In this document: positions 30,356-43,422 of the stretch, one piece after another
Position numbering within the stretch: position 1 is the stretch's first letter
How the letters are laid out: every line of letters begins with the position of its first letter
Assembly (NCBI GenBank): GCA_963823665.1
Contig: CAWGMQ010000003.1
Location: 96,001-160,000 of the forward strand
Source: an uncultured Planctomycetota bacterium
GTDB lineage: Bacteria > Planctomycetota > Planctomycetia > Isosphaerales > Isosphaeraceae
Direction of reading: 5' to 3'
Length of the DNA: 64,000 nt
The notes under the pieces: generated by a model
The model's input: only the letters and a program-made list of their open reading frames with translations
Databases searched by the model: none
What the model was told of the DNA's origin: nothing
Translations under genes and position numbers: made by a program

Positions 30356-30985
30356 AGACACCCGCTCTGCTCCGGAATCGACCCGACGGCGCCTTACGAT
30401 GGTCCGACGCCGAAGTCGCACTGCGCTGGCGCAAGCTCTTTCCGCAACATGACGATTCGATTGGACGGGCCGGGAATTGAGGCAGGACAAGCGTGGGGCG
30501 ATCCCTGAAGACCTGGCTCCCATTCTGGACCGGCTGGGCGGGTGTGGATCGATCGAATTGGGTGGACACAGTGCGCGATTTCGGTCGCGTGTTCAAGCAA
30601 GCGGCAGGTCGAGCGAGTTCGCTTCGGCTCGATGCACCGCGTTGCTCACGGCGCTGGTTTCAGGGCAAGGCAGCCGCGCAAGTCGCGTTTCTGTAAGTAA
30701 TCGGCTCGCTCGCTTGCGAGCCCTGGTCGTAGCGGCAGGCGCGGAATTCGATTGGATTCGAAGCCGGCCAGCGTGGTTTCCTTCGCCGGCGCGGCAAGCG
30801 ACGCGTGCAAAACGCCGGCGACGTAGCCGAGCGCACCCAGTTGCCGACCGTGTGTGGCAAAACGCGTGCTGTGCGCGTCGTCGGCCGCGAGGCACCCAGC
30901 GATCGCGGGACGCAAACCGGTGCGAGCCACGTGCGTCTGGCTTTCCCCGGCACCGACTGTCGACTGCAGAAGAGGGTGGGTGTCT
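30356..30985 (+). mobile_element. Decayed HUH/Y1 (RAYT-like) transposase remnant with its putative end
   Basis: Fragments read WSDAEVALRWRKLFP, DWTGRELRQDKRGAIPEDLAPILDRLG and WVDTVRDFGRVFKQAAGR (stop 30696); bounded by AGACACCC (30356) and GGGTGTCT (30978). Confidence 0.65.
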
Positions 30986-33003
30986 GGGTCCCCCCAGTCG
31001 CGAAGCCTGTCGTAGGTAATCCCCAGCTTCTGAGCGAGGTCTGGCAACCACCATTCGTCGCTCTCGAGCTGTTCACGGCCAACGGCCCCCCCGGTGAGAC
31101 CGCGGCGACATAAGAGCTGACGCACCGATGTCGGCGTATAGCCCTTCTGGGTTCTTGGCGTCCGATACCCCTCTCGAGTGAGATGGGCCGCCAGCTCCTT
31201 GATCGTCAGGCCTTCCCGACGCAGTTGCACGATCCGATCCATCATCCGATCGTATTCACCCAGAGACTCGTACCGGGAAACCGACCTGATAATCTCGTGA
31301 CTCGTGGTCTGGCCGCCTCGCCACGTAATCGCAACGCCGGCGCGTTCGGTGTTAGCGCGAACATCGACCACGATGCGCTCGGTGATAAGCCGTATGATCT
31401 CCTTGCGATCCATCGCCGTCGTCTCGGGCGCGTGCCAGAGTGTCGGAATGTCGGCGGCAACCGCCAGGATCCGACCGCGCTCCTCCTCCGTGAGCCGAGT
31501 CGGTTGTTCATTTAAGAATCGATCATACTCTTCCCGCAATTCGCGTTGGGCACGTAGCGCAGCCTCCCACTTTTGCTCCAGCCCCCGAGCCACCAAGCGA
31601 TTCTCGGGCTCGACGGCTTGGTACTGGCGTTCGGCACGCTCGACCTCATAGGAGGCACGCTCAAGCCGTTGCTCCCAGTGCCGGTTGAGATGCTGACGTT
31701 CCCGCTGCAAGCTCTCGATCGCCTTGAGGCTCAACTCCAGGGCTGCCGGTTCCAAAGCCAGGAGGACCTGCTTTGTTACCAGGTCATCAATGGCCGCCGA
31801 CGCCAGCCCCCGACAATCGGATCCCTCGAGGTGCTTTCGCATGCACACGTAGTATGCGGTCGACTTGCTGCGGTAGGTCGCGTGCATCCGCCGCCCGCAG
31901 TTCCCGCAAACCATGACACCCGCCAGAAGCGCCTTGCCGACACGAGGCGCTCCGACTGATCCGGGCTGGTAGCGATTCTGTTGAAGTCGCTCTTGGTTGG
32001 CCAAGTAACGGTCCCACGTGATGTAAGCCGGCAGTCGATCCGTTTGGAGCACCGTCCACTCTGACATCGGCATCTCGCGCATCTTGACCTTGGTGCCACC
32101 CGAAGCCGATTTTTTGTGATCCACGCGGCGACGCCCATAGGAGTAGGCTCCGGCGTAGATCGGATGGTGGAGCATTCGAGAGACCGTGGCCAGCGTGGGC
32201 CGGCGCCATTCCAGTTGGCCCCGCCGTGAGCCTCGCTGCACTCGCATTCCCAAGCGGATTTTGTTCCGCACCAGATAGCGGTAGACCCGCCCGAAAGAGC
32301 CCAGCTCGTCGAACGTGTCGAAAACCAATTGGACGATCGACCTCGCCTCTTCATCGGGGTCGATAACGACCTCGCCGGTGGGTAGTTTTAAGTACCCGCA
32401 CGGTACGCTGAGGATTAATTCGCACCGCTGGGCCTTGTAAAGTTTGCCCCCTTCCAGGCGGTTGTGCATCGTAACCAGCTCATATTCACTCATGGTGCCT
32501 TTCAGCCCCAAAAGGAGACGGTCGTTGGGGTCCCGCGGATCGTAGAGACCGTCCTCATCCGCCAGGATCGTTCCGAAGATGGAACACATCTGTAATAAGT
32601 GATGCCAATCCTCGTTGCAGCGGGCCAACCGACTCATCTCGATCCCCAGGATCAAACCGACGTGTTCCATGGTAACTTCGGCCAGGATGCGATGAAATCC
32701 GCTCCGATTTTCGGCCGTCTTGCCGCTGAGTCCTTGGTCGTCGTCGATGATCAGGATACGGTCGCGGGGCCATCCCAGTGCGATCGCGTGGTTGACCAGC
32801 GCGTACTGGCGTTCGCGTGATTCTCGGTGATCGCGGATTTGCTGCGGAGAGGATTGGCGGACGTAGATGATCGCCAGCAATCCGAGGTGCCAATCCGTGA
32901 TCAGGCCGGGCCGGACGCGACGTACGGTAGGATTCGCGGTGGGCACGGCCACCGGTTGCGGGTTTGCCGAGAGGAGCGGGCAGATGGTTTCACGAGCGCT
33001 CAT
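30986..33003 (-). CDS. Large serine recombinase (resolvase + recombinase + Zn-ribbon), C-terminally truncated
   Basis: IYVRQSS catalytic Ser, DDDQGLSG, EMSRLAR, GLKGTMSEYE, HPIYAGAY, CGNCGRRM..YYVC, YQAVEPENRLV; plausible homology ends at RLRDW, at the GGGTGTCT motif. Confidence 0.9.
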
Positions 33004-33150
33004 GCGTCACCTCCTTGCCGTCTGGAGGCTTCGCCAGTTGCTGGGCGATGACACGGGTCAGTGCGCTGAGAATTCGTTCTCGAAGCTCGACGGGGAAGGT
33101 CACCCAGATCTGCTGAGAATTGGGATGACTGTTTACTTTCCCGCGGCGCG
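32990..33150 (-). CDS. Small ORF overlapping the recombinase start
   Basis: QQIWVTFPVELRERILSALTRVIAQQL..GKEVTHERS; its 3' end provides the RBS of the recombinase; start uncertain. Confidence 0.55.
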
Positions 33151-33319
33151 GGGGGGACGACGGTGGTTCGAGATTGGAGCGAGACAACCCTCCTTGCTGA
33201 GTTCTCCGCCGGCGCTCCTGATACCACTCCGCCAATCGGAGTAGCGCCGGCAACCCGATGATAGCCACCGTCGACGGCGTCTGGCGAGGTGTGACTAGAT
33301 GAGCAGTTTGTTCCACAGA

Positions 33320-33368
33320 TCCGGATCAGTGGGAGCCCTGGCGGAGCGATCCGCCAAGGCGACCCGGC
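33320..33368 (+). ncRNA. Group II intron 3' fragment (distal half of domain V plus domain VI)
   Basis: 48/49 nt identical to 35036-35084; followed by GACATCC, the 3' half of the target GGGTGTCT^GACATCC seen intact at 35335. Confidence 0.85.
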
Positions 33369-33408: not shown

Positions 33409-33800
33409 CTACGTGGTCGATGCTTTCCTGGATTTGCTTCCCTTAGCGGCCTTGACGGCTGAATTCTTGCGCGTGGAGGACTTGGCGATATTGGAGAGCG
33501 ACGTTTTTGCGGTGCGTTCGTCCATGAGTGGGCCGGTCAAGTCGGCGAGTGTGCCCCCGAGGACGAAGAGGAGCGTCACCATCGCATCAAGCGTTACTCG
33601 GGGCGAGCAGTTCTCGATTTTGGCCACCCGCGATTGATCCACGCGGGCCATTGCGGCGAGTTGCTCCTGCGTGATCTTGCGCTGCGTGCGCAACCGACGA
33701 ATGGCCATAGCCGTCGTGATTTTCAGGTCGATCAGGAGCGACTCTTCGTCGCTGAGGCCGAGGAAATCGGCGGTGTCCCCCTCCACCCATCCCGGCTTTC
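33409..33800 (-). CDS. XRE/HigA-type HTH antitoxin (native N-terminus probably lost)
   Basis: GWVEGDTADFLGLSDEE..IRRLRTQRKITQEQLAAMARVDQSRVAKIE. Confidence 0.75.
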
Positions 33801-33814
33801 GGTCCACATCTCTG

Positions 33815-33943
33815 ACTTTCCGCATTGTGAAGGCGTCTCAAGAGCATACCCGCCTCGCGTCTGCCTTCGTTGGAGAAGGGCGGAGACTTGACCTCGCCCT
33901 TCAACCAATGCAGTCGTTTGACCTCGGCAGGCCCCGTGCTCAT
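33815..33943 (-). pseudogene. HigB/Gp49-like RelE toxin N-terminal fragment
   Basis: KRLHWLKGEVKSPPFSNEGRREAGMLLRRL, then similarity stops; the catalytic C-terminal part is missing. Confidence 0.7.
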
Positions 33944-34127
33944 CCATGAGGTTTAGGACAAAACTGTCATAATGTCAATCTGAATCGGCTGCATTGATCA
34001 GGAAATTGCTCGAATCGTGAAACGGTTGGTGCCGGATTTGGCTTCAGGCGATCGGCTCGCCCATCTCTTCGCGGAGGGGGAGGAGCGCGGGGAACGGCAG
34101 GGTTGCCAGACACCCACAGCGTTGCCA

Positions 34128-34288
34128 GGCAGGGTTGCCAGACACCCACAGATGGCACCGCGGAAAGTGGGTGTCTTTGCGTCACCCATCGATCGCAGAA
34201 CGCGAACGGGTGCGAGTTACGAGTGCCTGGCTTCTAACAAAACCCACTCCAGAGACCGGGCATCTGGCTGGCCAGAGTTTGGGTGTCT
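34128..34288 (+). repeat. ~160-bp repeat module, copy 1
   Basis: Near-identical to 35410-35571; the distal ~100 bp recurs at 42488-42587; contains AGACACCC and two GGGTGTCT. Confidence 0.85.
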
Positions 34289-34351
34289 GGCTTCCCCTCT
34301 GGCTTCCCCTGGCTCCCCTGGGTGTTTGGCTTCCCGAGAGGGTGGGTGTCT

Positions 34352-35084
34352 TTGCGTCAGGAAAAGCTCGAGAAAGGGGGAAGTGCCTCGAAACACAGAA
34401 ACCTTTCATCGCGACCCTGCGGGTTAACGAATCCCGCCCGGCAGAGCCTGGCCGGCAGCCGGAAGCAAGTCTTGCGTGGGGAGGGGTGACCCTCACTGCG
34501 AAGCGTAGACAGCGAGTCCACATGCCATGCTATCGAGCCCCGAAATACTCATCGTGGGAGCCTCCGTTGTAGACACAAGCGGGGGCCGTGTCGACACGCC
34601 GCAATGGCCTGGCGTGTTCGGTCCTGCCGGGGTCCAAGAACATGGCGCAGGGACGCGAGGGTTGCTCGGGAACCTGAGAGCCCCATCCGTCTCCACTGAC
34701 ATTTCCGGCTCGGGAACCGGAATACCAACTCCCCGGCCCACGACCCCGCGTCGGGTCGCTGGGAGCGAACAAGACGCAAGGGTGGTATCGCCAAGCGAAG
34801 GCAACGAAGTGCGGCGAAAGGGGCGGATGGGAGTCGGAGTGCTCCGTAGTAGCAGTGAAGCGGGGGAATGGGCCCTCCCAGACCCTGTGGAGCGAAGGGG
34901 GCACCGTGTCGTGGACTGGACGCCGGAACCACGCCGAGGGCATTGGACCTCAGAGCGCGTCACCGCGAGGCGACCAGATCGTGTGAGGGACAGCGACGCC
35001 GCGACATGACGAGCCGGATGCCTTAATTGGGCACGTCCGGATCAGTGGGAGCCCTGGCGGAGCGATCCGCCAGGGCGACCCGGC
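34352..35084 (+). ncRNA. ORF-less group II intron (733 nt)
   Basis: 5' TTGCG; domain V GAGCCGGATGCCTTAATTGGGCACGTCCGGATC (35011); domain VI hairpin ending GGCGACCCGGC; removing it restores GGGTGTCT^GGCTTCCC; EBS1-like AGACAC (34571) is complementary to the exon end GTGTCT. Confidence 0.88.
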
Positions 35085-35118: not shown

Positions 35119-35350
35119 GAGATTCCAGACGCCCATCTTTTGGTCACGGTCGACCGGATTCCATTCATTCGCGACTCGCACAATCGGCGCACAACCACGA
35201 GATTCCAGACACCCATCGTTTGGTCACGGTCCCCCGCATTCCATTCATTCGCGGCTCGCACGTTCGGCGCACAACCACGGCCTCTGGTCATTTCCAGCAC
35301 GCATCAGGCGAGTGTCCGACGCTCCGCAGACGGTGGGTGTCTGACATCCC
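35119..35350 (+). repeat. Two tandem 80-bp units plus a ~90-bp module also found at 43662-43750
   Basis: GAGATTCCAGACRCCCATC..CATTCATTCGCG..CGGCGCACAACCAC twice; CGGCGCACAACCACGGCCTCTGGTCATTTCCAGCACGCA..TCTGACATCC is duplicated at 43.7 kb. Confidence 0.8.
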
Positions 35351-35409: not shown

Positions 35410-35602
35410 GGCAGGGTTGCCAGACACCCACAGATGGCACTGCGGAAAGTGGGTGTCTTTGCGTCACCCATCGATCGCAGAACGCGAACGGGTGCGAGTT
35501 TACGAGTGCCTGGCTTCTAACAAAACCCACTCCAGAGACCGGGCATCTGGCTCGCCAGACTTTGGGTGTCTGACTTCCTTAGAGTTTGGGTGTCTGGCTT
35601 CA
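35410..35602 (+). repeat. ~160-bp repeat module, copy 2, plus extra GGGTGTCT motifs (left border of the AT-richer island)
   Basis: Direct repeat of 34128-34288; GGGTGTCT at 35451, 35564 and 35588. Confidence 0.85.
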
Positions 35603-35890: not shown

Positions 35891-35929
35891 TTGTATCACT
35901 TGACATCAAACGATAACAAACGATACAAG
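35891..35929 (+). promoter_or_regulatory. Putative sigma70 promoter with direct-repeat operator
   Basis: TTGACA at 35900-35905; CAAACGATA twice (35907, 35917); inverted TTGTATC/GATACAA; ATG at 35936 has no obvious RBS. Confidence 0.5.
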
Positions 35930-35935
35930 AGACGC

Positions 35936-37948
35936 ATGGCATCCACGCAATGGCTGAATACGGACGAAGCGGCTCAATATCTGGGGCTTGGGAAAACATT
36001 TGTTTACGCAATGGCTCAGGAAGGTAAAATCCCGGCCAATAAAGTGGGTAAGCAATGGCGGTTTAACACTGTCCATCTCGACGAATGGCTTCGATCGAAA
36101 AAGGACATCAAGTCGTTCTTTAGCACTGTTGTTTTCAACATCGCTGACAACACCGAGCTTCGCCAACCGCAACAAGATGGGTATGACCGAATCTATGAGT
36201 TTTTCACGCGAGGCGGTCGCGTTGCAATTGTGCAATTTCCGGTAGGGTGCGGCAAGACCGGGCTTGCTGCAATCGCTCCATTCGGCATTTGCAAGGGCCG
36301 CGTTCTGTACATCGCTCCAAACCTGACGATAAACGGCGAATTATACGATAATCTGAACATTAGCAACCGTCAAAAGTGTTTCTGGCGGCGGCGGCATGTG
36401 CTCGATGAGAAAGACATGGCAAACGGGCCGTACGTAACGACACTTGACGACTCGAATGTTAATGTCTGCCAACAATCGCACATCATCGTTACGAATATCC
36501 AAGAGCTGGCGTTGGTAGACGAAAAGTGGCTTCACAAATTCGGCAGTGATTTCTTCGACATGATCGTTGTCGATGAGGCACATCACAATGCGGCTGCGAG
36601 CTGGCAGAAAGTGTTTCAGCAGTTTCCAGAGGCGAAGGTCTTAAACCTCACTGCAACCCCTTTCCGAAGCGACAAAAAGGAGATACAGGGCGACCTTGTT
36701 TACCGCTATTCATTCAAAAATGCCGCGATTAAAGGCTACATAAAAAAACTGCGTGCCAGTTATGTGGCTCCAGACGAAGTAGTGATGTTCACGGCGGAGG
36801 GCAAAAAGACGACTTACACCCTCGCCGAAGTTATGAAAATGAAGGAAGATGAATGGTTTAGCAAAAACATCGCCTTATCCGAAGCGTGCAACACGAATAT
36901 CGTAAATAACAGTCTGGAAAAGCTCGAGCATCTGAGGCTGACTGGAACACGACACCAGGTTATCGCCGTGGCGTGTTCGATTCGGCACGCTAAGCAGGTT
37001 GCAGCACTCTACAAAGAGCGGGGCTTCTCTTGCGAAATTCTGCACAGCCACATGAAAGAGGATGAGCAGACGCAAGTACTGCTCAGCCTGCGAAACGGGA
37101 CGCTTGATTGTATTGTTCAGGTCGCGATGCTGGGTGAAGGTTTCGATCATCCCAAGCTGAGCGTAGCGGCGATCTTTCGCCCATTCCGCACATTGGCCCC
37201 GTACATCCAGTTTGTCGGCCGGATCATGCGGGTCATCGTGCAAAATAACCCAACGCACCCAGATAATTACGGCCACATCGTGACGCACGTCGGCATGAAT
37301 CAGGATGTGTTGCTGAAAGAATTTCGCGAGTTTGAGAGGGATGACGAAGAGTTCTGGGCAAAAGTCATCGGCGGTGAAGAGCCCGAGCCCCCGGGCAACG
37401 TGACATCTGGGGCTGCTCGCCTCCGTGGCCACAACGACGTGCGGATCCACGAAGAGATCGTAGACAATCTGTTTGAGGAAGCGTTCCTGGACGAAGATGA
37501 CGAAGCCATGTTGAAGGCAATTCGCGAGCAGCTAGAGGCACTTGGGCTTGATCCTGCGGCTGCCCAGGAAATGTATGAAAAAGCTAAACGGGGACGTTCC
37601 GGCCTGCAAAAGGTCGATGCTGCGGAACCTTTTGCAGTGCTCCCACAGAAAGCATTTCAAGAGGCCCGAATACTGTTATTAGATGATGTAAAACACCACG
37701 CCAAGATACTGCTTAACCGATGTGAATTACCGCTGATGGGCATGGAGCTTCAGGCGAAAAAAGCAATCCTGGGTCCGAATCTGGCGGTGGCGACCATTAT
37801 GTTCAATAAGGAACTCGGTAAGAGGGCGGTAAATAAGGAAGCTCGCTCACAGTGGTCGGTAGACGATTTCAAAGCCGCGAAAGACCTCCTCCCGGATATC
37901 CTGAACGCATTAACCCGTCAACTGAAGAAAGTACTCGCGGATGAGTAA
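35936..37948 (+). CDS. Excisionase-like HTH (HTH_17) fused to a SF2 DEAH helicase (ResIII-like)
   Basis: WLNTDEAAQYLGLGKTFVYAMAQEGKIPANKVGKQWRF; LRQPQ, PVGCGKT, VDEAHH, LTATP, MLGEGFDHP, QFVGRIMR. Confidence 0.88.
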   Translation: MASTQWLNTDEAAQYLGLGKTFVYAMAQEGKIPANKVGKQWRFNTVHLDEWLRSKKDIKSFFSTVVFNIADNTELRQPQQDGYDRIYEFFTRGGRVAIVQFPVGCGKTGLAAIAPFGICKGRVLYIAPNLTINGELYDNLNISNRQKCFWRRRHVLDEKDMANGPYVTTLDDSNVNVCQQSHIIVTNIQELALVDEKWLHKFGSDFFDMIVVDEAHHNAAASWQKVFQQFPEAKVLNLTATPFRSDKKEIQGDLVYRYSFKNAAIKGYIKKLRASYVAPDEVVMFTAEGKKTTYTLAEVMKMKEDEWFSKNIALSEACNTNIVNNSLEKLEHLRLTGTRHQVIAVACSIRHAKQVAALYKERGFSCEILHSHMKEDEQTQVLLSLRNGTLDCIVQVAMLGEGFDHPKLSVAAIFRPFRTLAPYIQFVGRIMRVIVQNNPTHPDNYGHIVTHVGMNQDVLLKEFREFERDDEEFWAKVIGGEEPEPPGNVTSGAARLRGHNDVRIHEEIVDNLFEEAFLDEDDEAMLKAIREQLEALGLDPAAAQEMYEKAKRGRSGLQKVDAAEPFAVLPQKAFQEARILLLDDVKHHAKILLNRCELPLMGMELQAKKAILGPNLAVATIMFNKELGKRAVNKEARSQWSVDDFKAAKDLLPDILNALTRQLKKVLADE

Positions 37949-38198
37949 ACCGCCATCCCTGATTAGTGGCTGCAACGGTAAACCGGAAGCGTACCAAGCA
38001 AGCCGTCAGGTAACGTGTTGCCGTTGTGACACGAAAATCGTGAAAGACGGTGCTGCTGTCAAAATCCCAACGAAGACGCAAGGCTACGCGGCGAAAAAAA
38101 TCTACTGTCTAGTCTGTTTTGCCGCGATCGTTAAACAGACACGCCTGGATTTAACTCACCTTGAGCAAACATTGATCCCGATACACGCCGCACAATGA
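37941..38198 (+). CDS. Small Zn-ribbon-like protein
   Basis: Overlaps the helicase stop by 8 nt; CCRC...YCLVC. Confidence 0.7.
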   Translation: MSKPPSLISGCNGKPEAYQASRQVTCCRCDTKIVKDGAAVKIPTKTQGYAAKKIYCLVCFAAIVKQTRLDLTHLEQTLIPIHAAQ

Positions 38199-38229
38199 GA
38201 GTTGTGCCTGGGCGGTCAAAGGTGACGCG

Positions 38230-38700
38230 ATGATACTTCCGGCAGGGACAGTGAGGTGCAACATGTGCGGCGGTAGCGGTATCTCGAGGCTGAGCAACCT
38301 CGCATGCGAGGAATGCAACGCTTTTGGGTTTCGCCCGGCTGATCCGACACGGACCTTGCGGTGCAACATTTGTGGAGGCAGCGGGATATCGAGGCTATCC
38401 TCACAAAAGTGTGAAAGATGTGATGGATACGGCACCGTCGCTCCACCGAGCTTTGTTCGCGGCGGCGATGACAATGTGGTAAGGAGGGGTTTGAAAATAC
38501 CGTGGCCGAAAGGATTAGGGCAGCGGGGTGACGTGGTGCTTGCCACGGTGGAGATCGCATTGTTCGTTGCAGCAGCGGTTTTCGGAATACTCTGGATTAG
38601 AGCGTCAGGCAGCAGCTATGAAGCGTTGGCCGCGTTCTTCGCCCTAGTAAGCGGCGGGGGCGTCGGCCAGTTGCGTCGCTATCTAGGGCACCGGCAGTGA
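38230..38700 (+). CDS. DnaJ-type CxxCxGxG zinc-finger protein with two C-terminal TM helices
   Basis: CNMCGGSG, CEECNAFG, CNICGGSG, CERCDGYG; two hydrophobic segments. Confidence 0.65.
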   Translation: MILPAGTVRCNMCGGSGISRLSNLACEECNAFGFRPADPTRTLRCNICGGSGISRLSSQKCERCDGYGTVAPPSFVRGGDDNVVRRGLKIPWPKGLGQRGDVVLATVEIALFVAAAVFGILWIRASGSSYEALAAFFALVSGGGVGQLRRYLGHRQ

Positions 38701-38873
38701 ATCGTCGTCTGATCGTGTTCCCGATCCAAGTCGACCACGACATGGGCGGTGAATAGCTCGGATTATCCGACGCCAAGAAGATTGGCGGTTGCTGGGAGGC
38801 GTCGCTTGCCTTACAAGGTAGAGAATCGATGCCTGCGGGTAGTCATGTTGCCAATCACTTAACGATTATTAGT

Positions 38874-39530
38874 ATGGACAAATCCACACTTACGGTCGAA
38901 CTATTGCTGGATGAGGCGAAGATCTTCTCAGAACAAGAATCGGTGCACCCAGAACCGACAATTTTCGGCGTGACCGATGGAAAAGCCATCGGCACCTATC
39001 TCGAGCATAAGTTTCAGCAGCATTTAGAAATAAAGTATGTGCATGCTCCTGGAAATTCTGCGAGCGGCATCGACCTGCCCGGCCTCGCGGTGGATATGAA
39101 AGTAACAAGCATTCGTCAGCCGCAGTCGTCGTGCCCTTTCAAACATGCTCGTCAAAAGATCTACGGCCTCGGATATTCGTTGCTTGTTTTCGTATATGAC
39201 AAGACAGATGATTCAGCAAATCGCACCGCGATTTTGAACATCCAACACACCATCTTTATTGACGCCAAACAGACGGGCGATTTCCAGATGACCAAGGGCT
39301 TGCGCGAAATCATCGAACGGGAAGGCAATGAGGACGACCTGGTTTCTTTCATGCAAGACAAAATGCTGCCGGTGGATGAGATCGAGGTCCGTCGGATCGC
39401 ACAGGATCTTTTGAAATCGCCCCCCGAGCAAGGCTATCTTACAATCTCGAACGCACTGCAATGGCGGCTTCAGTATGGTAGGGTGATCGTACAAGCCGGT
39501 GCAGTAGCAGGGATTACAAGGATACGGTAA
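38874..39530 (+). CDS. Type II restriction endonuclease (resembles the NspV family)
   Basis: GVTDGKAIGTYLEHKF, GIDLP..VDMKVTS (PD-D/ExK), QPQSSCPF, NALQWRLQY; directly upstream of an MTase. Confidence 0.8.
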   Translation: MDKSTLTVELLLDEAKIFSEQESVHPEPTIFGVTDGKAIGTYLEHKFQQHLEIKYVHAPGNSASGIDLPGLAVDMKVTSIRQPQSSCPFKHARQKIYGLGYSLLVFVYDKTDDSANRTAILNIQHTIFIDAKQTGDFQMTKGLREIIEREGNEDDLVSFMQDKMLPVDEIEVRRIAQDLLKSPPEQGYLTISNALQWRLQYGRVIVQAGAVAGITRIR

Positions 39531-39534
39531 ATCA

Positions 39535-41055
39535 ATGGCTTCTGGAAGGATCGCAGCGGTGCCCGATGAGTTCGGCGATTTTCAAACTCCTGAAACCTTG
39601 GCGGCGAGTGCATGTCGGCTTCTTTCGGGACGTGGCCTGAACCCGGCTTCTGTTCTCGAACCGACCTGCGGTGTGGGCAATTTTCTGCTAGCGGCAATCG
39701 AGCAGTTTCCCGATTTGACGACCGGAAGCGGCATCGATATTAATAATGACTATGTGTGCCTGGTTAGAAAAAGGCTAATCGACGGCTCTTATGCCGATAA
39801 GGTGAAAGTCCTTCAGGAGAGCTTCTTCGACGTCGACTGGAAGACCATTCTCCACGATTTGCCGGAACCAATCCTCGTTGTCGGAAACCCGCCGTGGGTG
39901 ACGAATTCGACACTCGGCGTGATCGGAAGTTCAAACCTGCCGAAAAAATCCAACTTCCAGAATTTCAACGGGCTGGAAGCCCTTACCGGCAAAAGCAATT
40001 TCGATATATCGGAATGGATGCTGATAAAACTGTTGGAAATGCTCGATGGACGTAGGGCAACTCTGGCCATGCTATGCAAAACGGCGGTTGCCCGAAAGGT
40101 CTTGGTCAATGCTTGGAAAAACGATGTCGGCCTAGCTGGTGCCGAAATCTATCCAATAGACGCCGCGGCGTCGTTCGGTGCTGCCGTCGATGCCTGCCTG
40201 TTGGTCTGCTCTCTGTCGCCCGCCAGTCACGGTCGGGATTGCCGCGTTTTCAAGAGTTTGGAAGATTCAATGCAGGTCGCGACCATCGGCTTTCACGATG
40301 GCCAGTTGGTGGCGGACGTTTCGGCCTACGAGCGTTGGAAGCACTTAAGTGGAAAGGAAGTCTACAAGTGGCGTTCCGGCGTCAAGCACGATTGCTCGAA
40401 GGTGATGGAACTGCGAAGAGAAGGCAATAACTTTCGCAACGGATTTGACGAACTAATTGATTTGGAATTGGATTATGTTTATCCGATGTTGAAAAGCTCG
40501 GAGATTACTAATGGGAAGAGCAAGCAACCGACCCGCTGGATGCTGGTTACACAGAAAGCCGTAGGCGATGAGACATCGGCCATACGATTGGACGCACCAA
40601 GAACTTGGGCGTACTTACAGAAGCAAGGCGAATTGCTGGATCGCAGGGGCAGCTCAATTTACCGGAATCGTCCTCGATTCTCGGTGTTCGGCGTCGGCGA
40701 TTACTCGTTTGCACAGTGGAAGGTGGCAATTTCTGGATTTTACAAGAAGCTGCAGTTCGCGACTATTGGTCCCCATGAGGGAAAGCCGGTAGTTCTTGAT
40801 GATACGTCGTATTTTGTGGCGTGCCAAAGTGAGCGGGAAGCCCGATTCATCGCGGATTTGCTAAACTCTGACACTGCCCGCGAGTACTTCTCTGCGTTCG
40901 TGTTCTGGGATGCAAAACGTCCGATAACGATTGACATACTGCGGCGGCTCGATCTGGCCGCTTTGGCGTATGAGCTCGGCTCGATCGACACTTTGGAGAG
41001 TTTTCGGGCAAAATCGCGAACGCACCAGCCCTATCGCCAAGTTGAGCTATTCTGA
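39535..41055 (+). CDS. N6-adenine DNA methyltransferase (gamma class; resembles M.NspV)
   Basis: FGDFQTP, VLEPTCGVGNF (motif I) before VVGNPPW (motif IV); C-terminal TRD WRSGVKHDCSKVME. Confidence 0.88.
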   Translation: MASGRIAAVPDEFGDFQTPETLAASACRLLSGRGLNPASVLEPTCGVGNFLLAAIEQFPDLTTGSGIDINNDYVCLVRKRLIDGSYADKVKVLQESFFDVDWKTILHDLPEPILVVGNPPWVTNSTLGVIGSSNLPKKSNFQNFNGLEALTGKSNFDISEWMLIKLLEMLDGRRATLAMLCKTAVARKVLVNAWKNDVGLAGAEIYPIDAAASFGAAVDACLLVCSLSPASHGRDCRVFKSLEDSMQVATIGFHDGQLVADVSAYERWKHLSGKEVYKWRSGVKHDCSKVMELRREGNNFRNGFDELIDLELDYVYPMLKSSEITNGKSKQPTRWMLVTQKAVGDETSAIRLDAPRTWAYLQKQGELLDRRGSSIYRNRPRFSVFGVGDYSFAQWKVAISGFYKKLQFATIGPHEGKPVVLDDTSYFVACQSEREARFIADLLNSDTAREYFSAFVFWDAKRPITIDILRRLDLAALAYELGSIDTLESFRAKSRTHQPYRQVELF

Positions 41056-41126
41056 AACGTTGACGCGTCTATTCGGTGATTCAAAACCAAGGCGGGGCAG
41101 GCGTGCGGAGTGCGAGAGCGATGGAG

Positions 41127-41798
41127 TCAGGCCAGAGCGTCATCGGAATCTTGCTCCTGACCATCCCGATCGAACGAGTCCGCATACTGCTGTAATACTT
41201 CTGACATTTCATACCGGCTTTGTTCAAGATCTGTCTCCACATTCAAGCCGAAATCGATGGCTTCTAGACCGGCGAGAACCTCGCTCATGGTTGTAGAAAA
41301 GGCGTGTAGACTGATTGTCTGATTTAGTGGGGTTGCATGCTTGCCATCCCGATCGATGGGGTAGCGATAGGAGAATGATTCGGGATCGATGCGGGCGAAC
41401 TCGGACGCCGTTGTCAGTGTTTTTTGCAGGAAGAACTCCAGATCATTGTCGTTTGGGAACAATCGTCTGAGTATCTTCGCGGCAGCTTCGGCGAGCGGCA
41501 CAAGCCGGTGGTCGTTCCAGAGTTTTCTTGGGAAGTCATGAATACCCTTAAATGCACACAGCAAAGCTGGCGTATAGATGACGTGCTTTAGATACAATTC
41601 AAATGCGTGCCGATATAAGAAAACAGCAGGATACGCTTCGTAATCGCGGAAGCCGTACTCCCTGGCGAGGAGTTCCTTCGCCAACATCTCTGCTGCACGG
41701 CTATATCCTTTGGCAAATACGCCGAAGTGATCCTTCGGTGTACTGCCAAAGCCAATACTGAAATCGTGTGTGTTGCTGATCGTGTTGTAAAAAGCCAT
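41127..41798 (-). CDS. HEPN-like hypothetical protein
   Basis: YPAVFLYRHAFELYLK..HRLVPL..DPESFSYRYP follows the E-xx-LK / H-x-L-xx-L / RYP HEPN pattern. Confidence 0.6.
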   Translation of the reverse strand: MAFYNTISNTHDFSIGFGSTPKDHFGVFAKGYSRAAEMLAKELLAREYGFRDYEAYPAVFLYRHAFELYLKHVIYTPALLCAFKGIHDFPRKLWNDHRLVPLAEAAAKILRRLFPNDNDLEFFLQKTLTTASEFARIDPESFSYRYPIDRDGKHATPLNQTISLHAFSTTMSEVLAGLEAIDFGLNVETDLEQSRYEMSEVLQQYADSFDRDGQEQDSDDALA

Positions 41799-42162
41799 GG
41801 TCACGCACCTGACAAGCCCGTCTCAGTAAAACCACAGATTCCATGCGCCCAGACACACTCATAATAGTTTGGTTCGGTAACTGGTACTATGCCCACGGCC
41901 TGGCTTCGTCGCATTTCCCCGCCACATTTGTCTCACGCACCAGATAGCCGAATTTTCCTGCCTCGTCAAAAAAAGACGGGCCAGTTACCCACCCCCCGCC
42001 TGCTTCAGCGTTGTGGTTCACACTCCGCCGGGGCGTGGATAACTGGCCCGGCATCCTGCCATTAACCACTCATCACGCGGCTAAGCGTAAATCCTTACTG
42101 TGTCAGTCGGATGGCTAAATAGCCTGTTTTCAGGCTGTTTTCGCGTAAGGAGATTCCAGACA

Positions 42163-42420
42163 TCGCGCCAAGAAGCTCGGAAAGGGAGGATCATCTTAAA
42201 TGTGAAACCTTTTAGTCGAACCCTGCGGGTATACAATCCCGTCCGGCAGAGCCTGGCCAGCAGCCGGAAGCCAGTCTTGTATGTGGGGAGGCGACTCTCA
42301 CTGCGAAGCGTAGACAGCGAGATCAAACGCTGTGCGATTGAGCCCCGAAATTTCCCTCTTTGTTCTGAGCCCTCGTCCTTGTCTGACGCGGGGGGCCGCG
42401 CCGGGCATTAGCGACACCTG
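42163..42420 (+). ncRNA. Group II intron 5' fragment (domain I), second lineage
   Basis: Colinear with 34352-34600 (ACCCTGCGGGT..CCGGCAGAGCCTGGCC..CACTGCGAAGCGTAGACAGCGAG..GAGCCCCGAAAT); EBS1-position loop reads TGTCTG (42380); no domain V/VI found. Confidence 0.82.
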
Positions 42421-42487
42421 GACCCACAAGCGTGCCCGGTCAGACCGGGGTCGAGGGACATGGCGAAGGGGGACCGCGAGGCACCGA

Positions 42488-42587
42488 TCGATCGCAGAAC
42501 GCGAACGGGTGGGAGTTACGGGTGCCTGGCTTCTAAGAAAACCCACTCCAGAGACCGGGCGTCTGGCTCGCCAGAGGTTGGGTGTCA
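42488..42587 (+). repeat. ~100-bp repeat module, copy 3
   Basis: ATCGATCGCAGAACGCGAACGGGT..AAAACCCACTCCAGAGACCGGGC..GGGTGTC, as at 34188 and 35470. Confidence 0.85.
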
Positions 42588-42783
42588 GTCTTCCGCTGTG
42601 CGCGCTGTCGGCCGCGAGTCATCTGGCAATCGCGGGGCGCGAACTGGCGCGAGTCATCTGTGCCTGGCTTTTCCCTGACTCAGTCCGGAGAATGGTAACC
42701 GGCTCGTCTCGGGCTCCTCTCCGTGTCATGTGTGCCTGGCTTTTCCCGGAGCCGAGTCCGAAGAATGGATGTTTGGCTTGCCC

Positions 42784-43422
42784 TTACCAAGTTGCCGGTT
42801 TATGGATCGTTCCGTGGGCATCGGTGAGGGTCCCCGGGAGTTGGCATGTGGGCAGAAGCGAGGTATCCACGAGCAGCGATTTCGTGGCCACCTTGCGTAA
42901 TTCAAAGCTGGGTTTCCGGCCGGGCCTGCACGGATGCAGCACCAGCACGTTCTTTTTGAATTTCTGCCGCACGAGGCGGATCGGCTCCGCCAGGTCGGAA
43001 TCATTGGAGACGATCACCGCTGTTTCATACTCGTCGTCGAAAGCGTCCACCAGTAGGTAGGTCGCAATGTTCACGTCCGACCCTTTCTCCTCGCTCTTCA
43101 TCACCTGCACCGTCTTCGGTCCCGTTGCCGGCATCGGGTGCAACGGCATGCGTGTCGGTTTTTCCAAGTAACTGCCGAGGTGAACCGTCAGATGAGGCAG
43201 GGTCCGCAGGGCACGCAGATAAGTTTGCTGCCGAACCCGTTGTTGCGGATTATTCGACCGGGCGTTGACGTGAGCTGTGAAATAGCGGATGCGAGTGATC
43301 TGATTGCGTGGAGGAGGAAAGGACGCTTGGCAAAAAGTAGCGAGGTCAAGCCATTTATGTGGGGTGCCTTTCAGGCAGCCATAATACAGGTTGAAGCCGT
43401 CGATGTAGACGTTCGTCTTCAT
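42784..43422 (-). CDS. NYN/LabA-DUF88 (PIN-fold) ribonuclease
   Basis: VYIDGFNLYYG, IRYFTA, EEKGSDVNIA, VSNDSDL acidic catalytic motifs intact. Confidence 0.92.
   Translation of the reverse strand: MKTNVYIDGFNLYYGCLKGTPHKWLDLATFCQASFPPPRNQITRIRYFTAHVNARSNNPQQRVRQQTYLRALRTLPHLTVHLGSYLEKPTRMPLHPMPATGPKTVQVMKSEEKGSDVNIATYLLVDAFDDEYETAVIVSNDSDLAEPIRLVRQKFKKNVLVLHPCRPGRKPSFELRKVATKSLLVDTSLLPTCQLPGTLTDAHGTIHKPATW

Follow-up and report, generated by a model that had tools for sequence, protein, structure and literature searches.

The window, i.e., the whole 64,000-nt stretch of planctomycete DNA analysed here, carries a complete ORF-less group II intron of class E, inserted in a repeat that recurs throughout the genome. 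The intron domains (DI to DVI) and the exon- and intron-binding sequences (EBS, IBS) are placed as follows.

34352-35084 (+): ORF-less class E group II intron, family A, 733 nt (RF02005 match, copies, sites)
34352-34645 (+): domain I, 99% identical to the resident sister that encodes a reverse transcriptase (RT)
34644-34831 (+): domain II region, 98% identical to the resident sister
34837-35008 (+): domains III-IV, a cross-genus ORF-less module, with a degenerate ribosome-binding site (RBS) and start-codon remnant in DIV
35011-35043 (+): domain V, AGC triad and 5-nt loop, from the fold
35047-35081 (+): domain VI, branch adenosine 35078, from the fold
34341-34345 (+): candidate IBS2 GGTGG, inferred pairing with two G-U
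34346-34351 (+): IBS1 GTGTCT, last six 5′-exon bases and end motif of a Y1 element family
34549-34553 (+): candidate EBS2 TCATC, tentative, in partial overlap with a stem of the Rfam model
34571-34576 (+): EBS1 AGACAC, loop of hairpin 34561-34585, from covariation
34635 (+): EBS3 C (intron C284), the column covarying best with exon +1
35085 (+): IBS3 G, first 3′-exon base (G in 17 and A in 2 of 19 sites read)

The element (34352-35084, + strand, 733 nt) starts with TTGCG and ends with ACCCGGC, and positions 34428-34642 match the Rfam family RF02005 (group-II-D1D4-6) at 139.5 bits (E = 1e-39; cut-off, 49). It contains no RT, and the first-pass annotation, made from the letters alone, was right to call it a complete ORF-less group II intron with a TTGCG start and with DV and DVI at the 3′ end. 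DV folds as a hairpin with an AGC triad, a bulge and a 5-nt loop, and DVI as a hairpin whose bulged A35078 lies 7 nt from the intron end; domains II to VI gave the expected folds, and none of 20 shuffles was as stable as the whole intron (z = -3.06). Excision of the 733 nt yields GGGTGTCT^GGCTTCCC, which equals the empty site at 34281-34296, as the annotation also had it; the insertion is precise, with no target duplication. The covariance-model search that it proposed gave a divided answer, with RF02005 matched but RF00029 (Intron_gpII) not at threshold: DV and DVI reached the gathering score of no Rfam family, a narrow search included, RF00029 was unlisted, and the best D5-type match scored 14.1 bits. 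DIV had been said to keep the first and last codons of an RT gene. The former stand, as a degenerate RBS and ~16 N-terminal codons in which ATG has become ACG and the frame is broken, and the old stop position can be placed at ~35002-35004 (TGA to CGA), but C-terminal RT codons are not recognisable in DIV. The class E feature alpha′, the tip of a stem-loop in DId3, found no 6-nt complement within the ranges tried. Four RNA runs gave short contigs, mostly of relatives’ RNA, in which neither an exon junction nor a lariat joint was seen; the splice search left out runs that had only a small share of words. Among other classes, the hairpin-seeking class C is ruled out by the 6-nt covarying EBS1 and the EBS2 signal described below, and classes F, g1, g3 and D by the only 27-35% identity of the sister’s RT to g1, g3/F and D references, compared in a quick tree that held no labelled E row and from which two rows were dropped as short.

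Target recognition can be read from a set of 97 related introns in which both ends are present, thinned to 43 representatives that share less than 93% identity. For each of the exon positions -1 to -6, the strongest covariation is with a single EBS1 column (36-42 Watson-Crick pairs of 42-43), and exon +1 pairs with intron C284 in 38 of 43. The loop AGACAC of hairpin 34561-34585, proposed earlier as EBS1, is an exact complement of GTGTCT, and since the EBS1-IBS1 pairing covaries across the 43 introns, the call is confirmed independently of the window copy. Column-wise covariation gave no signal for EBS2 among the 43 representatives, and a position-free shuffle test in which 40 of them were scored gave a mean of 4.63 against 3.76 ± 0.18, reached in 0 of 5000 shuffles; EBS2 probably pairs with GRTGG. 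The intron had also been described as site-specific, and a check for copies at non-complementary sites found all 20 family A copies behind TGGGTGTC (-9 to -2) followed by T or C.

The target proposed as multicopy is abundant: TGGGTGTCTGNNNYCC occurs 89 times in this genome, against none for the reversed control, and 67, 111 and 27 times in three relatives; 27 of 101 genomes have one or more occurrences (controls, 0-1). This repeat is the end motif of a ~1.8-kb element that codes for a 409-aa Y1/HUH-type transposase, and of miniature derivatives of that element. In the full layout, AGACACCC stands ~225 nt before the gene and GGGTGTCT ~250-370 nt after it. Among 14 near-complete 409-aa Y1 loci, four of which were chosen because the repeat was nearby, six had the end motif at both ends and eight at one. 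The protein carries an HUH motif (HLH at 76) and a Y---NP motif (YVDLNP at 189), is 34-51% identical to Alteromonadales ‘transposases’, and has no Pfam match itself, while a 33%-identical relative matches PF01797; the family was reached via weak matches among 30 loci, and two of three distant Alteromonadales homologues have one end motif, in the same orientation. At two such elements (L293, L295; G000:C3:448682-450612 and C8:1395091-1398699), the AGACACCC...GGGTGTCT ends read outward and end fragments are tandemly reiterated. The window holds several derivatives of these elements, together with pieces of other introns.

30356-30985 (+): internally deleted Y1-element derivative with both end motifs kept (82-88% DNA and 76-93% protein identity to L293)
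33320-33368 (+): 3′-terminal 49 nt of another family A copy, then the proper 3′ exon GACATCC
34177-34288 (+): repeat Q, an 8-nt intron stub (TTGCGTCA) fused to a Y1-right-end-like piece; second copy at 35459-35572
34281-34296 (+): empty target site, by sequence check
35207-35342 (no strand assigned): repeat R, a ~136-bp miniature element with AGACACCC...GGGTGTCT ends (44 matches, 40 of 96 candidates scored)
42163-42467 (+): truncated family B intron, EBS1 TGTCTG, at the same motif on the opposite strand (CAGACA^)

Repeat R is the commonest landing site of the intron elsewhere in the genome and, by our reading of the matches, 18 of the 20 family A copies adjoin R, Q or a Y1-element end, or a tandem duplicate of one; at the other two (L014, L020) the motif is present with no recognisable element. 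Tandem duplication of the end motif is common. The opposite strand of the end motif is the target of family B, a second ORF-less family, whose EBS1 is TGTCTG. The 8-nt TTGCGTCA stubs are scars of deleted introns, fused to element ends and copied within a composite repeat (window 34177-34184 and 35459-35466; G000:C3:198250, C3:200627 and C10:1466452). The end motif is multicopy and lies outside genes, and it therefore offers the intron a renewable target in two orientations; the site may also be harmless, the ‘safe’ target of the first-pass annotation. As for the repeat itself, it was considered as a classic REP or attC and rejected, with no attC-type ends and no cassette pattern established in the cargo between repeats. 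In two regions (G000:C11:548000-584000, C6:908000-927000), copies of R are spaced 2-7 kb apart, with one or two unrelated genes in between. Within the window, a gene for a large serine recombinase, preceded by a small ORF (30646-33316), is broken at its 3′ end by the end of a Y1 derivative and adjoins an intron 3′ fragment, and a defence-like island lies between repeats (33412-33947, 35891-43422), with an HTH gene and small partner, an HTH-helicase, an NYN nuclease and, by reading and without a Pfam match, a restriction/methylase-like pair.

The genome was also searched for copies and for an RT-encoding parent, as had been advised. A DNA search in which 40 of 79 candidates were scored found 14 short family A copies, 97-100% identical and five of them identical to one another, and six long ones of ~2012 nt. 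Short copies at such identity, in an intron whose 733 nt lack an RT, agree with the earlier description of a non-autonomous element. The junction GGGTGTCTTTGCG has 26 exact sites in the whole genome, made up of 19 family A copies, one 27-nt stub, five 8-nt stubs and one chance match, and the twentieth copy follows GGGTGTCC; a 5′-end pattern search with mismatches misses copies lacking one A, and the counts rest on the DNA search, the site reading and the exact junction count. Head-to-tail intron pairs with 24-33 nt of duplicated target between them lie at G000:C10:1458546-1460035 and C3:193335-194658. The long copies encode a 450-aa RT-maturase (TIGR04416, 326.7 bits) in which no HNH or other endonuclease domain was found; the ORF is intact in two of the six, one of them at G000:C6:911026-913037, and frameshifted in the other four, where assembly error may contribute. 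This RT is 53-54% identical to plasmid proteins labelled class E at the same coordinates in the part of the PMC8919778 supplement consulted, and its nearest named relatives are from Planctomycetota, many of them Isosphaeraceae, so that the host probably belongs there too.

Which enzyme mobilises the short copies is a question with more than one answer on offer. Mobilisation by another protein (a lost family B RT, that of an RT-HNH intron or a 479-aa RT), or protein-free splicing and integration, is in our judgement unlikely. The genome holds 22 RT matches, and the DIII-IV module of the short intron (see below) is common to family B, whose RT survives as a fragment only. Yet identity to the family A protein is 28-36% for the other intact RTs (RT-HNH, 479-aa), a 5′-truncated fragment is the sole further RT that comes close, and the short copies are young, as the five identical ones indicate, while family B copies are mostly broken. 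The preferred donor is the long sister, whose endonuclease-less RT-maturase would splice and reverse-transcribe the short RNA in trans.

The orientation of the copies bears on how they arrived. By fourfold-site GC skew over ~0.9 Mb around ten intron clusters, the G-rich strand carries the intron sense in seven of eight regions with clear skew (p = 0.035); counted singly, 14 copies follow this trend, one goes against it and five are unclear. The one exception is the window copy, on the C-rich strand, which an inversion or a minor pathway could explain. The bias fits reverse splicing into the lagging-strand template, which is known for the endonuclease-less introns RmInt1 and RmInt2 (PMC4615759, as far as consulted). 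Passive spread inside Y1 or miniature elements, by DNA transposition or duplication and with no retrohoming, could account for the adjacency of most copies to R and for the common tandem duplications of the end motif, but we hold it to be very improbable: near-identical introns sit at right and left ends of R, at right and left ends of Y1 elements and at lone motifs, their host elements are only 77-94% alike with differing 3′ flanks, orientation tracks the replication strand and not the element, and a copy-by-copy disagreement between host-element and intron trees is seen in part.

The short intron and its long sister are not alike throughout. In 40-nt windows, their identity is 95-100% up to nt 480 and then falls to 72, 65, 56 and 41%, and the same drop is seen in G003 against its own resident long intron; G014, which serves as a control, shows little drop and is a plain, fresh ORF deletion. 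DIII and DIVa of the short intron have their nearest matches in family B and in ORF-less introns from other genera. DIII, non-coding in both forms, is 82-87% like that of ORF-less family B or of another genus and at most 72% like that of the long sister, and DIVa, the expected RT-binding region, is only ~55% like the donor’s, a point against borrowing of the sister’s enzyme. A tree of DIII-DIVa groups the 14 module-bearing introns in one clade (99/98), a grouping partly by construction, as nine of the 14 rows, and not the other five, were found with the module as query. In the DI-DII tree the same introns need nine changes, and the AU test rejects the module clade there (p = 2e-43). Conversely, in DIII-DIVa it rejects a clade of short and long introns (p = 4e-6 here, 0.002 in G003).

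On these alignments the short intron reads as a mosaic, with the front half from the RT-bearing sister and the middle from an old ORF-less lineage. Simple loss of the ORF from the resident long intron, with DIII-IV drifting afterwards and its likeness to ORF-less introns arising by convergence once coding constraint was lost, could draw on the 98-99% identity of DI-DII to the sister, on the fresh deletion in G014 and on the origin of TeI3 by deletion (PMC2882425, in the part consulted), but 28-59% divergence in DIII-IV beside 1% in DI-II is incompatible with one clock, and together with the DIII identities and the AU test this largely refutes it and leaves it a scant chance. The TeI3 mode of origin, by deletion from a resident RT-coding intron, is contradicted here by the mosaic identity and the AU tests.

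Of 121 genomes from a single family, 38 contain matches to the module, some of these matches short and weak. Among 30 module-bearing loci fetched, 12 gave a whole intron (729-750 nt), none gave an RT-coding intron bearing the module, and at one an RT match was close by, in the form of an upstream C-terminal piece. The module is joined to at least three different front halves, and its structure is kept, with compensatory change in 28 of 70 pairs among 20 introns. In families A and B, DV-DVI side with the backbone, although weakly resolved, which suggests a double crossover. An ORF-less intron observed in a relative (L225, G030:C12) has the same EBS1 and target, and its DII is interrupted by a ~2.3-kb insertion in four copies.

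Taken together, we consider it likely that the 733-nt element was assembled as a mosaic by recombination and, being a class E group II intron that cannot move on its own, relies on a borrowed enzyme for retrohoming. An old ORF-less DIII-IV module would have replaced DIII, DIV and the ORF of a family A intron, the phylogenetic conflict being observed and the mechanism, presumably recombination at the conserved DII/DIII and DIV/DV junctions, deduced from it. Through this recombination the module would take over the target specificity of family A: EBS1 pairing with GTGTCT and EBS3 with the +1 G, both supported by covariation, and EBS2 probably with GRTGG would jointly read the Y1/HUH end motif. 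The RNA, spliced with the sister’s protein, would be reverse-transcribed mostly after reverse splicing into the lagging-strand template. Trans mobilisation has a precedent in PMC2882425, and the targeting of IS inverted repeats has one in PMC4615759, both in the parts consulted. The pattern suggests that such parasites acquire new targets by part-swapping.

Introns of families A and B are themselves targets. Seven RT-HNH introns (627 aa) all lie at the base of DVI in family A or B introns (G000:C3:190298, C3:1262265, C6:914750, C6:1322411, C8:517990, C8:676453 and C11:559674), and five of them are identical over the 1.5 kb compared. Their predicted EBS2 pairs with GGATCT. None of 13 short A copies with GGATCA is invaded, against seven of ten copies with T (Fisher p = 0.0005, for events that are not independent), and the following position tracks with non-invasion.

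35044 (+): A replacing T, within the predicted IBS2 of the RT-HNH intron

Many of the relatives’ targets are repeats of the TIRYT type. Among 33 TTGCG...GG(C/T) representatives, 17 share a single insertion register within the reverse complement of GG[GT]G[AT][CG][AG], and 22 do so with one mismatch allowed (background, 0.13% exact and 1.7% with one mismatch), whereas none of ten GTGCG...GAC introns does; the core was taken from the published consensus with flanks and written after the target sites had been seen, and kin among the 33 are not independent. The remaining 11 use other targets. The GG[GT]G[AT][CG][AG] motif is the core of repeats that flank short Y1 (TIRYT) genes, whose consensus is GGGGWSAS (PMC3733652, part consulted), and such repeats were present at 18 of 35 loci; at L185, an intron sits directly in the right repeat of a short Y1 gene. 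The focal target is not such a repeat, since no short TIRYT gene occurs among the flanks read and the focal site has p = 0.19 under the TIRYT matrix. At free register neither the focal nor the family B sites were significant under that matrix, and the focal site is off the relatives’ register. At four relatives’ loci (L063, L102-L104), the target is the DII sequence ACGAAG.

Comparison with known systems is made here with those parts of the sources that were consulted. TeI3 of Thermosynechococcus elongatus (PMC2882425) is similar in that ORF-less copies outnumber RT-coding ones, with good EBS/IBS pairing, ORF-end remnants and twintrons, and the combination of multiple ORF-less copies at matched sites with a related RT-coding intron in the genome is found here too. 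However, TeI3 copies are reported as mobilised in trans, which here is deduced; TeI3 represents one deletion in one genome, as opposed to a cross-genus ORF-less module on several backbones; and its lineage protein has an endonuclease, unlike the class E protein here. RmInt2 of Sinorhizobium meliloti, which inserts in the inverted repeats of ISRm17 (PMC4615759), likewise lacks an endonuclease, targets the terminal repeats of another element, and shows two orientations, a lagging-strand bias and head-to-tail copies, but it is a class D, RT-coding intron at one IS in one strain, whereas here two intron families, together with relatives throughout a bacterial family, make use of Y1/HUH-element and miniature ends on either strand. 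Class E introns (PMC3753933, PMC8919778) share the 5-nt DV loop and an RT-X protein without endonuclease, and the nearest labelled proteins are class E; in PMC3753933, splicing of class E introns proceeded by hydrolysis. The present introns differ in their ends (TTGCG...CCCGGC), in being ORF-less and in having DV/DVI below the RF00029 threshold. As for the host element, TIRYT/TIRtron (PMC3733652) and TnpA-Y1 subclasses 2.1 and 2.3 (PMC6006769) also have inverted repeats flanking Y1 genes, a GGGGWSAS-like core and dispersed repeat families. The 409-aa element resembles subclass 2.3, reported without a flanking REP-like structure (PMC6006769), yet has AGACACCC...GGGTGTCT ends, and these are oriented opposite to TIRYT repeats (PMC3733652). 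The consulted portions of PMC3733652 and PMC6006769 link no intron to TIRYT or TnpA-Y1 ends.

ORF-less trans-mobilised introns, inverted-repeat targeting and twintrons have already been published (literature covered, in part: PMC2882425, PMC4615759, PMC4424553, PMC8643678, PMC3552965, PMC7923331, PMC12584367), so the features that the first-pass annotation emphasised have direct precedents. What the analysis adds is the identity of the target, the family-wide specialisation on Y1 ends and the travelling ORF-less module. At the level of titles and abstract openings, the literature gave neither introns at Y1-element ends nor an exchanged DIII-DIV module; Simon et al. 2008, Dai and Zimmerly 2003 and the repeat lists in figures and additional files of PMC3733652 and PMC6006769 lie outside that scope and may bear on novelty.

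A broader reading, on which our confidence is evenly balanced, is that the DIII-IV module of Isosphaeraceae-like planctomycetes is a long-lived, RT-less portable adaptor and not a decay product. It would recombine into a locally active class E intron, remove the ORF, keep the targeting domain and out-copy its victim with the victim’s own enzyme, in a four-level chain of parasites; if true, this chain would bring together the adaptor module, the focus on Y1-element ends and the RT-HNH intron that invades DVI. For a poorly described family of Y1/HUH elements whose ends are otherwise undefined, the insertions serve as end markers, and the natural swap of a targeting half against a protein-binding half provides ready chimeras for studying the RNA-domain basis of RT specificity, which bear equally on the persistence of non-autonomous introns. 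Surveys requiring RF00029 above 24 bits (PMC8919778, part consulted) would probably miss ORF-less module introns and, if the adaptor reading is true, such introns are a persistent and under-counted bacterial lineage.
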